Origin: Alphaproteobacteria bacterium
GTDB lineage: Bacteria; Pseudomonadota; Alphaproteobacteria; RF32; CAG-239
Length of the DNA stretch: 57,156 bases
Direction: 5' to 3'
Assembly (NCBI GenBank): GCA_017471705.1
Contig: JAFUSH010000012.1
Span: forward strand, 1 to 57,156
Under the pieces are notes generated by a model. It ran no database searches. It was not told the DNA's origin and saw only the letters and a program-made list of their open reading frames with translations. Below, piece by piece: positions 1 to 57,156 of this stretch; the stretch's first letter is position 1; each line of letters begins with the position of its first letter. The translations under genes and the position numbers were made by a program.

Positions 1-256
1 CCTAAAAATAGGTAATTTCCTTTATTAAAACGGAGTGAGCTTATATTGCCTCCTTTCCCCTCGCTCGGTTACTCATACAATTTCACGCAAATATCGCCGT
101 CCCATTTTACAATAAGATTAATATTATAAAAATCTTTTAAAGTCAAGCTAAAAATATTATTAAATAAGAAAAATGTGTTAATTTAAAACTAAACTTATAA
201 TTCTATACGATTCAAATATTCATAACCATATAACAGGTTATATACTTTAAAAGTAC

Positions 257-286
257 AAAAAAAATCCGCCAATCGGCGGATTTTTC
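257..286 (-). terminator. Intrinsic terminator downstream of nusG
   Basis: Stem AAAAATCCGCC-aatc-GGCGGATTTTT; on the minus strand it is followed by a T-run, just after the nusG stop. Confidence 0.85.
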
Positions 287-303
287 ATCTGCAAAAACTT
301 TAC

Positions 304-834
304 TTAAGCTTTTTCTACCTGTGAAAATTCCAATTCAACCGGAGTGTAACGTCCGAAAATGGAAACCGAAACTTTCAAGCGGGACTTCTCAGTATCAACT
401 TCTTCCACAACTCCTACAAAAGAAGCAAACGGACCGTCATTAACTCTGACTTGTTCTCCCACTTCATAAGTGATATTGGTTTGCGGATGCTCAATCCCCT
501 CTTTAATTTGATTCATAATCTTTTCAACTTCGGCATCGCTGATTGCCTGAGGTTTGTTACGGCTCCCCAAGAAACCGCTAACTCTCGGAGTACTCTTAAC
601 CACCAACCAAGTTTCATCACTCATTTCCATTCTTACCAAAATATATCCCGGAAAGAACTTACGCTCGGTATCAACTTTTTTACCTTTTTTAATCTCAACT
701 ACATTTTCGGTCGGAACAAAAACATCCGAAATGCGGTCTTGCATATTTTTCAAAACAATTTGCTCTCTAAGCGACTCGGCAACTTTCTTTTCCGAACCCG
801 AATACACATTTACAACATACCAACGAGCTGACAT
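304..834 (-). CDS. nusG: Transcription termination/antitermination factor NusG
   Basis: [15 protein letters not shown]-terminus, [12 protein letters not shown] motif [26 protein letters not shown]. Confidence 0.98.
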
Positions 835-846
835 TTGTTTGCTCTC

Positions 847-1038
847 CTATCCTAAATGCAAAATTTTATCTACGCCCCAGCCCAGTACCATATCAACGGC
901 AAAGAAAAACACCGTTGCCACCGCGACCAAGACAACAACCATTGTACAGGAAGGAACAACTTCCTTTTTAGACGGCCAAGTAACCTTTTTCATCTCTTGT
1001 TTTACCTGACGCAAAAACTGTATCGGACTAGTACTCAT
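847..1038 (-). CDS. secE: Preprotein translocase subunit SecE
   Basis: FLRQVKQEMKKVTWPSKKE motif plus one TM helix; directly upstream of nusG. Confidence 0.96.
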   Translation of the reverse strand: MSTSPIQFLRQVKQEMKKVTWPSKKEVVPSCTMVVVLVAVATVFFFAVDMVLGWGVDKILHLG

Positions 1039-1158
1039 TTGTAACCCTTATTCAAAATTTCATTATATGCCGTAACCTTCACCGTCACGGACGCTATCGG
1101 CATATTAAATGCCGTTTTGCCATAATGTCAAGCATTTATTTACGTCTGTCAAGATTTT

Positions 1159-1425
1159 TTATTTACATCTTTCGGCATAAATGTATTGCGTACCAACAGA
1201 CAGCTTGCCTTCAAAAAAAGACATAGGCTTACTGCTCCATATATCCCTTTTACGACTCTTCAATTGAGAACACGCACATTTATATTCATTATTCTCATAA
1301 AGAAAACACGTAGCATTTGCCTTTTTAAACGACGTAACAATACTTGTATTTTCACCGAAGTCCGCGCCTCCCGCAAAAGCAACATTTATCGGCAGTATAA
1401 GTAAGCAAATCAATAATCTCAACAA
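1159..1425 (-). CDS. Small secreted hypothetical protein (about 88 aa)
   Basis: Start reassigned to TTG at 1425, after an AGGAG RBS overlapping the Lon-like stop; signal peptide LLRLLICLLILPINVAFA|G; 4 Cys in the mature part. Confidence 0.6.
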   Translation of the reverse strand: MLRLLICLLILPINVAFAGGADFGENTSIVTSFKKANATCFLYENNEYKCACSQLKSRKRDIWSSKPMSFFEGKLSVGTQYIYAERCK

Positions 1426-1435
1426 AACAAAGCTC

Positions 1436-54977: not shown

Positions 54978-54990
54978 TCACTAAAATAAG

Positions 54991-55038
54991 CAAACAAAGG
55001 CGCTTCTTTTTACTTATAGGGAGTGCCTTTGTTTGTTT
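54991..55038 (+). terminator. Terminator after tsf
   Basis: CAAACAAAGGCGCTTC...GGAGTGCCTTTGTTTG long stem with G-U pairs. Confidence 0.75.
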
Positions 55039-55054
55039 GAAAAGGTCGACAGAA

Positions 55055-55612
55055 ATGAACGAAGAAATACAAGGCAAAACTATGGAGCAGGAAAATATGA
55101 AAACTATATTTGATTGTTGGACAGATGCCATCAAACATTTCTTTGATATCAGAGGTCGTACGACGCGCTATGAATTCTGGGCTTTTCAAACTGTCAGTTT
55201 GTTTATATTCATTTCAGCATCTTTAATTGGTTTCTGTTTTGATTTATATAAAATCGTTTTTGAAATTTACGCCGTTTATTTTCTGGCTCCGGCAACAGCC
55301 ATAAGCATTCGCCGTCTGCACGATATGGGATTATCCGGAAAATGGGCGGTTCCTGCTTTTATTTTAGCCGTAATAATGCTGATTTCTTGGGAATTAGGCA
55401 CTGACTTCGTTTTTTTACCGCTGTTTTTACTTCTTTGCTATATAAGTTATTTATACTGGCTGTTGAGTGATGACAGCGACAATAATAATATATACGGCAA
55501 TAAAATCGACGAGCCGGAAATATACAATCAGGACAGTAAAGTGTTTATTATCTTTATGGCACTTTTCTTAAGCGCTCTGTGGATAATTTTTTTAATAAAC
55601 ACATTGTTCTGA
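55055..55612 (+). CDS. DUF805 (YhaH/YhaI-like) membrane protein
   Basis: FDIRGRTTRYEFW, ISIRRLHDMGLSG, N.YG. Confidence 0.88.
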   Translation: MNEEIQGKTMEQENMKTIFDCWTDAIKHFFDIRGRTTRYEFWAFQTVSLFIFISASLIGFCFDLYKIVFEIYAVYFLAPATAISIRRLHDMGLSGKWAVPAFILAVIMLISWELGTDFVFLPLFLLLCYISYLYWLLSDDSDNNNIYGNKIDEPEIYNQDSKVFIIFMALFLSALWIIFLINTLF

Positions 55613-55753
55613 AACTCCATAAATACTGATTTATCACTGTTTCTCCATAAATTCCGTAACAATTCGTAACATATTGTTAAAAGCATTTAGGCAAAATTTA
55701 TGATATATAATATCATACGTTTTTGTAATCAGCTAAATTATAAAGGATTTTCT

Positions 55754-56779
55754 ATGAGCAATACAATCAAAGTTGCCGTTATCGGCGCCGGAATGATGGG
55801 GAAAAACCACTTAAAAACTTATAAAACAATGCAGGGCGTTGAACTGGTCGGTGTTTACGATATTTTTCCCGACGCCGCCAAAGCAGCTGCCGAAATGTTC
55901 GGAATAAAAGCTTTTTCTTCAATGGAAGAAGTTGCAGCTAATGTTGATGCTGTCAGCGTAGTTACGACTTCGGTTACTCACGCCGATGTCGGTGAATTTT
56001 TTATGAACAAAGGTATTCATTGTATGATGGAAAAACCTCTAGCCACTACCGAAGAAGGTTGTATGCGTCTTATTAATGCTGCCAAAAACAACAATGTCGT
56101 GTTGATGGTCGGACACATTGAGCGCTTTAATCCGGCTGTTGAGCAAATGGGAAAATTGTTATCGGATACCTCTAAAATCCGTTCACTTACAGCTCAGCGT
56201 ATGTCGGCTGCCAGCGGTCGTATTACCGATGTCGATGTAGCTATGGATTTGATGATTCACGATGTTGAAGTTATTCAATCGTTGGTACAATCTCCGGTGA
56301 TTAACGTACAAACAGCTTCGGTTAAAACAAAGGAAAGTCCGCAAGGAAAAGATTACATTACTGCTCTGCTGGAGTTTGCCAACGGTGCTACCGCCAATAT
56401 TACCGCCAGCCGTATCACACAGTCAAGAGTGCGTACTTTGACGGTTACTACCGATACCAACTACATTGATATGGATTTTATAAATCAAAGCATCAATGTT
56501 CATACTCAGGGTCGTATGCCATATGTTAATCAGGAAGAAATTCCGGAGTGGATGAATTACGGCTTAAAAGGCAGTGTCGAACAATTGTTTATTCCGACCA
56601 ATCAACCATTGTTGGCAGAATTGAACCACTTTGTTAAGTGCGTTAACGGTGAAGCAACTCCGCGCGTTAACGGTGAACAGGCTCTGGATGCCTTGCGCGT
56701 GATTTGGGAAGTCGAAGAGAAACTCGGTTTTTTAAATGAAAACAAAACCGAGAAAAAAGGTAAATCCAAAGCTGCTTAA
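55754..56779 (+). CDS. Gfo/Idh/MocA family oxidoreductase (GnnA/WlbA-like sugar-nucleotide 3-dehydrogenase)
   Basis: VAVIGAGMMG, MEKP, VGHIERFNPA, DLMIHD; start ATG 55754 after AAGGA. Confidence 0.88.
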   Translation: MSNTIKVAVIGAGMMGKNHLKTYKTMQGVELVGVYDIFPDAAKAAAEMFGIKAFSSMEEVAANVDAVSVVTTSVTHADVGEFFMNKGIHCMMEKPLATTEEGCMRLINAAKNNNVVLMVGHIERFNPAVEQMGKLLSDTSKIRSLTAQRMSAASGRITDVDVAMDLMIHDVEVIQSLVQSPVINVQTASVKTKESPQGKDYITALLEFANGATANITASRITQSRVRTLTVTTDTNYIDMDFINQSINVHTQGRMPYVNQEEIPEWMNYGLKGSVEQLFIPTNQPLLAELNHFVKCVNGEATPRVNGEQALDALRVIWEVEEKLGFLNENKTEKKGKSKAA

Positions 56780-56839
56780 TACAATAAAAGCCTTCTTTCC
56801 CATACATATTTTTAGTAAATATTCCGATTGTATTAAACT

Positions 56840-57156
56840 ATGCGAGAGAAAATATTATACTTGCGAAACCGTCTTTTATCAGGATTTATTACCAAAATAA
56901 AGAATCCGTTTTTTACGGTGTCATTGCTTCTGTGTATTTCTCTTTGCTTTTTTCAACTTTGGCTTTATTGGCCGGGATATATACAAGATGATTCACAAAC
57001 TACGCTGTTGTTAATTAAAAGCGGATGGCATCCGGTGATTATGGCTTATTTGGTGGAAATAATGCATAATTTGTTCGGAGTTCACGTATATAATCTTTTT
57101 TTGCTCACTATGGTACCTTTTTATCTGGGAATATGGATAATTATTTATTCTGTATA
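56840..57156 (+). CDS. Partial integral membrane protein, possibly GT-C-like (runs off the window)
   Basis: Open frame to the window end, missing from the ORF track: MREKILYL...YWPGYIQDDS...GWHPVIMAYL..., with hydrophobic segments. Confidence 0.65.
   Translation, partial: MREKILYLRNRLLSGFITKIKNPFFTVSLLLCISLCFFQLWLYWPGYIQDDSQTTLLLIKSGWHPVIMAYLVEIMHNLFGVHVYNLFLLTMVPFYLGIWIIIYSV

Follow-up and report, generated by a model that had tools for sequence, protein, structure and literature searches.

The tetranucleotide CATG has been almost completely removed from the core chromosome of an uncultured alphaproteobacterium (genome G000), and we consider it probable that selection arising from CATG-specific restriction removed it, with a type II restriction-modification (R-M) module of the UpaP162 family on contig C67 of the same genome as the resident agent. 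The stretch of DNA from which the analysis starts, referred to here as the window, comprises 57,156 bases at 39.2% GC and represents the whole of contig C62. G000 is a metagenome-assembled genome (MAG), a bin of 89 contigs and 1.82 Mb that is rated 100% complete and 0.66% contaminated. The features discussed below are collected in Table 1.

Expected counts of 4-mers were calculated with a second-order Markov model, and the expectation from base composition is given alongside. The window contains a single CATG against 143 expected under the Markov model and 202 from base composition, which agrees with an earlier note made on this DNA by eye, in which one site had been found and around 200 were thought to be expected. 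The observed/expected (O/E) ratio of 0.007 is the lowest among all 256 4-mers. The one remaining copy could be removed synonymously and nothing forces its persistence; most simply, it has either not yet been removed or has newly arisen. Besides CATG, three palindromes are avoided three- to five-fold in the window, namely GATC (40 vs 192 expected, O/E 0.21, a five-fold depletion), CTAG (7 vs 29) and GGCC (38 vs 130), and the description of GATC as common in the earlier note must therefore be corrected. GANTC, which the note likewise called common, has 101 copies in the window and is only mildly low in the core genome as defined below (O/E 0.54–0.72). As a separate compositional feature, CCGG is present 290 times in the window, which is 3.4 times the base-composition expectation (84) and 0.80 of the Markov expectation (364); CTGG/CCAG stand at about 0.65 and, together with CCGG, may represent a repair or methylation signature.

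Across all contigs of G000 there are 727 CATG against 4,680 expected. Sixty-nine of the 89 contigs (1,524,281 bp), which we refer to as the core, hold 106 copies against 3,795 expected (O/E 0.028); on the remaining 20 (293,263 bp), 621 were counted and 912 expected. This split was made on CATG itself and is circular for that word; however, the large CATG-rich contigs (C32, C42, C43 and C20) are also without the GATC, GGCC and CTAG depletion of the core, and are therefore compositionally foreign. CATG density can be used in this assembly to tell native DNA from recent arrivals such as a prophage and the foreign contigs. Within the core, the ten NCATGN classes are all found at O/E values of 0.009–0.044, which shows that avoidance is directed at the 4-mer alone rather than at 6-mers containing it, for example GCATGC or CCATGG. 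The claim that this depletion goes far deeper than ordinary site avoidance is upheld by both the core and the window ratios.

Two of the CATG-rich contigs have features of their own. C42 (80,052 bp) has an open reading frame (ORF) layout that repeats at a shift of 42,130 bp, including ORFs of 893 and 3,523 amino acids (aa), with 61.5% of positions identical, and it may be a tandem or concatenated element of about 42 kb, perhaps of plasmid or phage nature. Because CATG, GATC and GGCC are not depleted on it, C42 may not belong to the G000 cell. The small contig C14 carries an RT-2 RNA (C14:446–687, minus strand; Rfam RF03077, 93.4 bits), a class of RNA linked to reverse transcriptases.

The manner in which CATG was lost can be read from 1,240 long ORFs of the core, with the ORFs on the 20 CATG-rich contigs as the comparison. 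In the core ORFs, CAT accounts for 4,006 of 5,333 His codons where the next codon begins with a base other than G, and for only 33 of 1,772 where it begins with G. Codons of the form NNC precede ATG in 21 of 5,150 cases, compared with 4,426 of 17,005 before the Ile codons ATH, and the four-fold codons NCA precede TGN in 14 of 1,905 cases, compared with 3,817 of 15,593 before other codons starting with T. None of these three biases is seen in the ORFs of the CATG-rich contigs. CATG has been cleared from all three reading-frame positions via synonymous choice, at no cost to protein sequence, and the constraint on coding at NNC-ATG, CAT-GNN and NCA-TGN junctions that had been foreseen for core genes is borne out by these counts. 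Trinucleotide or codon-pair bias fails to account for the deficit, as the codon contexts in the core ORFs make clear.

We also considered what has replaced the lost sites, using 127 aligned positions at which the loci of 11 relatives have CATG and reading the corresponding word in the window. The replacements are TATG (20), CGTG (20), CATA (18), CATT (13), AATG (13), CACG (9) and GATG (6), followed by a tail of multi-step changes. Given that all frames and all one-step substitution routes have been used, the loss of CATG is the result of selection against the word itself and not of a mutational sink; of the two causes named together in the earlier note, long-term selection is the one that stands. 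The sink would operate if a cytosine-5 (C5) methyltransferase made m5CATG and deamination of 5-methylcytosine then produced TATG or CATA without any selection. The partner enzyme in the C67 module is a complete C5 methyltransferase, TATG and CATA together are the most frequent class of replacement (38 of the 127 sites, and 5 of 10 in the L024/L025 pair of related loci), and these words are mildly enriched (1.16). However, inner-base transitions (CGTG and CACG, 29) and the transversions to CATT and AATG (26) are almost as frequent, the most enriched neighbouring words are GATG/CATC (1.44) rather than TATG/CATA, and the main escape in frame 0, from CAT to CAC (33 vs 1,739 before G), is out of reach of cytosine deamination. 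GGCC, which is likewise the target of a C5 system (of HaeIII type), has only fallen to about 0.3. The replacement spectrum thus largely refutes the sink, which we regard as very unlikely; a deamination push may add to the loss of CATG but cannot be its main cause.

It could also be asked whether assembly, binning or library preparation has produced the scarcity of CATG artificially, given that G000 is a metagenome-assembled bin and that 20 of its 89 contigs behave differently from the rest. We give this explanation practically no weight: intact genes have lost the word through exchanges between synonymous codons, and CATG density is normal on other contigs of this assembly, which together exclude it. 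Independent assemblies of other species are, moreover, equally purged, and on contig C52 a CATG-bearing prophage is joined to purged DNA. This prophage (C52:1–27,900, adjoining a tRNA gene at 27909–27982) encodes a tape measure protein, a portal, a large terminase and a serine integrase, as well as two methyltransferases, one of C5 type and one ParB-fused N6/N4 enzyme. It holds 38 CATG against 90 expected, with 3 against 40 in the rest of the contig, and is moderately low in all three of the host's restricted words (CATG 38/90, 0.42; GATC 38/99, 0.38; GGCC 39/121, 0.32). The presence of about 38 prophage CATG on the host chromosome molecule is possible only if the sites are protected, by a methylase of host or phage, or if the nuclease is inactive.

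The 106 residual CATG of the core are clustered, with 26 of 63 neighbouring pairs less than 1 kb apart and 23 sites within 1.5 kb of a contig end, and they are enriched outside long ORFs, where 32 of the 106 lie in 12% of the sequence. This distribution points to small patches of recent origin and not to sites kept by constraint. One such grouping, of 8 CATG in the otherwise purged contig C36 (C36:32000–40000), lies beside a tRNA at about 38108–38181 and is probably another small integrated element. Ribosomal RNA genes, in which there is no synonymous escape, were looked for in 20 stretches with Rfam, which gave three tRNAs and the RT-2 RNA only, and a search for conserved rRNA motifs gave no match in the G000 assembly.

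Table 1. Location of the window, its single CATG and the R-M genes of G000. Positions without a contig label refer to the window.
Feature	Location	Strand	Description
Window, whole	1..57156	.	CATG-purged core chromosome; housekeeping genes (Lon-like protease, PBP1A, RNase E/G, LptD, PtsI, GyrB, Hsp33, RecX)
Only CATG of the window	33769..33772	.	within GCATGC, codons GCA|TGC (Ala-Cys), in a 1,881-aa ORF (30528-36173)
M1	46818..47756	+	Dam/DpnM-family N6-adenine DNA methyltransferase, 312 aa; PF02086, E 4.2e-59; TIGR00571
M2	47758..48528	+	N6/N4 beta-class DNA methyltransferase, 256 aa; PF01555, E 1.8e-64; CcrM-like catalytic domain only
R	48543..49082	+	small PD-(D/E)XK nuclease, 179 aa, presumed restriction enzyme; PF20472, E 7.6e-06
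Type II R-M module	G000:C67, about 12157-15206 (about 3 kb), outside the window		methyltransferase, nuclease and two small ORFs of no known family
Helix-turn-helix (HTH) + C5 DNA methyltransferase	C67:12203-13549		PF12728, N-terminal HTH; PF00145, positions 1-322 of 324
Predicted UpaP162-family endonuclease	C67:13515-14276		253 aa, downstream of the C5 methyltransferase; NF045956
HaeIII-family nuclease	C13		core R-M inventory; PF09556, E 2e-94; beside a C5 methyltransferase
CcrM	C74		core R-M inventory; with RAMA domain, no nuclease
Orphan N6/N4 DNA methyltransferase	C70:37622-38548		core R-M inventory; gene order PTS (phosphotransferase system) EIIA, ORF of about 91 aa, methylase, then FtsH

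The nuclease of the C67 module matches the NF045956 model, 'UpaP162 family type II restriction enzyme', with an E-value of 1.8e-90 and 302.5 bits (cut-off 100) over profile positions 2–224 of 225, and it retains all 46 invariant columns of a 22-member alignment. There are 185 homologues at E ≤ 0.001, the nearest of which is 70% identical. The protein has no Pfam match and no useful sequence match among solved structures. Its AlphaFold model, however, is of high quality by its own scores (predicted local distance difference test (pLDDT) 90.1, predicted template-modelling score (pTM) 0.87), and Foldseek returned 72 PDB matches for it at E ≤ 0.001, led by SwaI (E 7.5e-7, TM 0.59/0.65), HincII and EcoRV. 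SwaI, HincII and EcoRV are classic blunt-cutting PD-(D/E)XK enzymes, and the predicted fold fits the blunt cut measured for the UpaP162 prototype. The module contains one CATG. In the closest relative, G005, the corresponding 3 kb or so are missing, and the end of pgpA is followed directly by the terminator region that precedes the trigger-factor gene; the module is therefore an indel relative to G005.

The prototype is the UpaP162 system of Ureaplasma parvum OMC-P162 (UPV229/UPV230; PMC6191088), which resembles that of C67 in consisting of a C5-type methyltransferase followed by a nuclease, and the two nucleases belong to the same family by a curated equivalog model. According to the accessible part of that paper, both recombinant and native UpaP162 cut CATG bluntly between A and T, and the neighbouring UPV229, a C5 methyltransferase by homology, blocks this cutting. 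The two systems differ in their hosts, here an alphaproteobacterium and not a mollicute, and in the N-terminal HTH (PF12728) carried by the C67 methyltransferase. They differ also in what has become of the sites, since the Ureaplasma genome retains 1,450 CATG and the system is strain-specific there, whereas G000 is purged (PMC6191088, accessible part). The authors state in the same text that they detected no nuclease domain in UpaP162, whereas the predicted model of the C67 enzyme is EcoRV/HincII/SwaI-like. With regard to the methylation mark they argue for m6A (PMC6191088, in part); here, m5C seems the likelier mark, because a full C5 methyltransferase adjoins the nuclease in 25 of the 28 loci described below.

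These 28 loci were obtained from a scan of metagenomes for relatives of the C67 nuclease. The adjacent enzyme is in each of the 25 cases a homologue of the C67 methyltransferase (45–74% identical, HTH region included), separated from the nuclease gene by −15 to +94 bp, and the other three loci are a truncated contig end, a 1.2-kb contig and a spurious 29-residue match. We then masked the R-M genes and kept loci with at least 4 kb of flank, which left 17 for a test of palindromes, L194 and L195 among them being near-identical. In 16 of these loci, CATG ranked among the first three palindromes by depletion. Pooled over all 17 it stood at 203/664 (0.31), the lowest of the 16 palindromes, with GATC next at 0.57. 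Unrelated hosts of the UpaP162 family thus avoid CATG, some of them completely (0 observed against 74 expected in L194, 46 in L195 and 15 in L177) and others hardly (0.77 in L174, 0.76 in L193). Such a wide range among carriers is as predicted by the 'lifespan' view of avoidance, as set out in the available portion of PMC4687349.

The relatives of G000 were examined in order to place the purge in its clade. Rumen MAGs labelled Alphaproteobacteria have a GyrB 96% identical to its own, about 78 other gut and rumen MAGs have one that is 79–92% identical, and in aligned stretches of DNA even the closest relatives are only about 75–87% identical to it. Records labelled Bacteroidaceae, Eubacteriales, [Ruminococcus] gnavus and Lachnospiraceae (L016–L019 and L038) have a gyrB of alphaproteobacterial type that is 83–91% identical to that of the window; since they group with the Alphaproteobacteria on the tree, the bins have probably been given the wrong label. 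Between 20 and 110 kb was sampled per genome, with 20 kb each for a survey of 20 same-genus genomes, most of which have CATG at 0.5–0.9. In larger pooled samples a few relatives lie below this range: G001 at 0.02 (60 kb sampled), G002 at 0.04 (79 kb), G003 (= G098) at 0.11 (113 kb), G004 at 0.22 (68 kb), G130 at 0.33 (68 kb) and the closest relative, G005, at 0.42 (42 kb). Other species avoid other words. In the 20-kb samples GGCC was found once against 65 expected in G047, GATC twice against 48 in G007, TCGA 4 times against 30 in G172 and CTAG not at all against 17 in G150; further deep purges concern GATC in G038 (0.03), ACGT in G009 (0.09) and G196 (0.14), and CGCG in G109 (0.06).

On a quick GyrB tree of 69 rows, supported by the Shimodaira–Hasegawa-like approximate likelihood ratio test (SH-aLRT) only, and from which 12 of 80 loci were left out as shorter than 8 kb or having no GyrB frame picked, purged rows stand beside unpurged sisters: G000 with L001, L005 with L003–L011, L025 with L024 (59/69) and L058 with L054 (69/76). 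There have therefore been at least four separate CATG purges in the clade. All 10 CATG have changed within 4.1 kb at 94.8% identity between L024 and L025; we do not take this pair as evidence for a very fast purge, as the genomes are only 77–85% identical elsewhere.

One of the purged relatives, G003, encodes an ICEA-family protein (PF05315, E 1.6e-100) beside a D12 methyltransferase. This arrangement is of the NlaIII/IceA1-HpyI (hpyIM) type, which has the same CATG target as that proposed for C67 but an unrelated nuclease family and an adenine methyltransferase. The accessible part of PMC2749054 describes IceA1 as 52% identical to R.NlaIII and hpyIM as a CATG-specific methyltransferase gene. 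ICEA is present in 5 of the 201 sampled genomes of the taxonomic family, and PF05315 gave 0 matches in G000.

Building on the depletion itself, its codon-level nature, the gene content of G000, the family membership of the C67 nuclease and the association of that family with CATG loss elsewhere, we propose the following course of events. The C67 nuclease would cut CATG, bluntly (CA^TG) as the prototype does, and the methyltransferase would protect the chromosome by making m5CATG. Occasional cutting of sites left unprotected, after replication or when the methylase is low, would make each CATG slightly harmful, and some 3,700 copies would in this way have disappeared one at a time by silent substitution, possibly with a contribution from CATG systems that the lineage carried earlier.

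Several findings weigh against this proposal. The specificity of the C67 nuclease is deduced from its family membership, at 54–63% identity to the named Mycoplasma-group members. The module is AT-rich (GC 0.285 vs 0.39), and a UpaP162-family nuclease is found in only one of the 201 sampled family genomes, that of G000 itself. In G000, CATG (0.03) is depleted ten times more deeply than GGCC and GATC (about 0.3), and we can only guess at the reason: the system may have resided longer, a blunt cutter may be more toxic, or protection may be less efficient. Among carriers of ICEA the predicted depletion is borne out only in part, with CATG at 0.11, 0.30 and 0.57 in the three strong carriers and at 0.30 and 0.77 in two weak matches, and G206, an ICEA-free sister of G003, stands at 0.73. 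Lastly, G001 and G002 gave no UpaP162-family gene, ICEA gene, or C5 or D12 methyltransferase above cut-off, the methylases found being CcrM and the conserved orphan described below, and a deep CATG purge can thus exist without a detectable cognate system. Mobile DNA may be missing from these two MAGs, which measure 1.2 and 1.6 Mb; they could carry the traces of lost systems, an unrecognised CATG system or a methylase-free state. Beside rplI on contig C12 of G001 (L246:680–2556, minus strand), a 222-aa ORF that matches nothing in Pfam or NCBIfam follows a 402-aa N6/N4 methyltransferase, and we note the two as a candidate R-M pair.

Much of this would be accommodated if the purge were mainly the legacy of one or more earlier CATG systems that are now lost or sit on unbinned mobile DNA, the C67 module being a later arrival which settled easily in a site-poor genome and now merely maintains its state. 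The rarity and AT-richness of the module fit this history, as do the sister G005, which lacks the module yet is already at 0.42, and the two genomes purged without a detectable system; the clade harbours no fewer than two CATG enzyme families that are unrelated to each other. There is also precedent in the 'traces of lost R-M systems' reported in the available portion of PMC4687349, where sites of systems known only from other strains of the species were avoided in 43.3% of 1,930 cases. Nevertheless, we think a mainly inherited purge unlikely. G000 does hold an intact, matching CATG-type system, other hosts of the UpaP162 family are CATG-depleted, some totally, and G000 gave no sign of a remnant of any other CATG system, the ICEA search being empty and the only other D12 match lying on the foreign contig C32. 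We therefore continue to favour the C67 module as the resident agent. The earlier note had argued for a persistent CATG-directed nuclease in this lineage, and a predicted nuclease with its methyltransferase is indeed encoded; the persistence is only partly upheld, however, given how rare the module is among family genomes, its absence from G005 and the separate origin of the other purges in the clade.

The window has an R-M cassette of its own (M1, M2 and R in Table 1), which the earlier note had implied to be the CATG system. It is a complete module of two methylases and a nuclease and is CATG-free inside, and D12-class methyltransferases, to which M1 belongs, include CATG enzymes such as the one beside ICEA in G003. 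M1 nevertheless scores 271.8 bits on the TIGR00571 dam model (cut-off 114.85), against 24.6 for that G003 enzyme. Its closest solved relatives are DpnM (2DPM, E 1.8e-47) and then E. coli Dam, both of them GATC enzymes; with DpnM it shares the stretch [19 protein letters not shown], which in Dam structures is the DNA-reading loop. Three other family genomes hold the whole M1-M2-R cassette at 67–88% identity and none of them is CATG-purged (O/E 0.81, 0.55 and 0.81; GATC 0.50, 0.29 and 0.37). It is thus extremely improbable that this cassette is the CATG system, and M1 is probably GATC-specific and no part of such a system. GATC stands at 0.21–0.50 in the cassette carriers including G000, yet it is low clade-wide with or without the cassette.

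M2 scores 262 bits on the CcrM model, below the 830-bit cut-off. R has 6,859 homologues, of which the 120 listed are 66–91% identical to it; a Pfam scan gave PF20472 only and no DpnII-family match, and a search among solved structures gave no useful sequence match. Its model (pLDDT 79.5) shows a generic PD-(D/E)XK core only, with no Foldseek match at E ≤ 0.001 and no likeness to a known GATC enzyme. The layout is similar to that of the DpnII cassette, which runs DpnM, DpnA, DpnB (GATC), in that a DpnM-like D12 methyltransferase is followed by a second N6/N4 methyltransferase and then a nuclease; the difference lies in the nuclease, here a 179-aa PF20472 protein without a match to the DpnII family of Pfam. 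The cassette (GC 0.318) is an insertion between recX and gyrB, where the spacer is 2,835 bp long in G000, 504 bp in L002 and 24 bp in L026, and it was found at none of the gyrB loci of 80 relatives. R is present in 3 of the 200 other family genomes, plus one fragment. G003 was considered as a further carrier and rejected, as it gave only a 42-residue match and its locus is the ICEA-type system.

The CATG purge of G000 is a case of classical restriction-site avoidance of unusual depth, the kind being known and the degree striking. Such avoidance was reportedly treated in earlier work by Gelfand and Koonin in 1997 and by Rocha et al. in 2001. As in the survey of orthodox type II R-M systems by Rusinov et al. 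(2015; PMC4687349, available portion), a palindrome is rare where a separate endonuclease and methyltransferase are encoded, GGCC and GATC are avoided alongside resident systems, and relatives show avoidance without a system. The depth is different, the threshold for avoidance in that survey being a ratio of 0.78 (PMC4687349, in part), compared with 0.028 in the core and 0.007 in the window. A further parallel is provided by pandoraviruses, in which, according to the accessible part of bioRxiv 10.1101/712018, a single 4-mer has likewise been almost eliminated from megabase-scale genomes; these are viruses of amoebae, whereas in G000 a matching restriction system is present. A literature search, in which most matches were judged by their listing or the start of the abstract, found no report of the present case. 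What is new is modest: the little-studied UpaP162 nuclease family is now tied to a predicted EcoRV-like fold, a conserved C5-methylase partner and an association with CATG loss in many hosts, and a gut clade is seen to drive single 4-mers repeatedly close to extinction.

G000 offers a quantifiable case of a restriction system reshaping its host's chromosome, at about 3,700 silent substitutions and no protein-level cost, and the clade forms a natural series in which the rates of build-up and decay of avoidance could be measured. The species-specific elimination of palindromes would also matter for the choice of enzymes and vectors, should these uncultured gut bacteria be grown and transformed. 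A bolder idea is that the near-total loss of one 4-base palindrome is a recurrent, reachable and self-sustaining state in this family, in which CATG has been nearly eliminated at least four times and GATC, GGCC, ACGT, CGCG or TCGA have fallen to about 0.15 or below in other species. We hold this to be a long shot. If it were true, the methyltransferase would become dispensable in a site-free genome, so that a lineage could keep or re-acquire the nuclease without it, and a site-free lineage would be immune to the addiction effect of incoming systems of the same specificity. G001 and G002 (0.02–0.04) would then be examples of methylase-free immunity by site loss, and these two are the only loose end here from which a new direction might follow.

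The remaining R-M genes of the core are those on C13, C74 and C70 (Table 1). The HaeIII-type pair on C13 matches the GGCC depletion of G000, just as the Dam/DpnM-type cassette matches that of GATC. The orphan methyltransferase on C70 is kept, at 64–89% identity and in the same context, in G001, G002, G003 and G005, and represents a second conserved orphan methylase of the clade besides CcrM. It was considered as a CATG methylase or R-M partner and rejected, being present in purged and unpurged relatives alike, in a housekeeping context and with no nuclease. In G003, the locus L147 (G003:C3) contains repeats of about 100–230 bp at about 5360–5590, 6705–6927, 7071–7370 and 14598–14946. The same repeat family is present in G206 in dozens of copies, at 70–90% identity and in both orientations, and has the look of miniature inverted-repeat transposable elements (MITE) or repetitive extragenic palindromic (REP) sequences.

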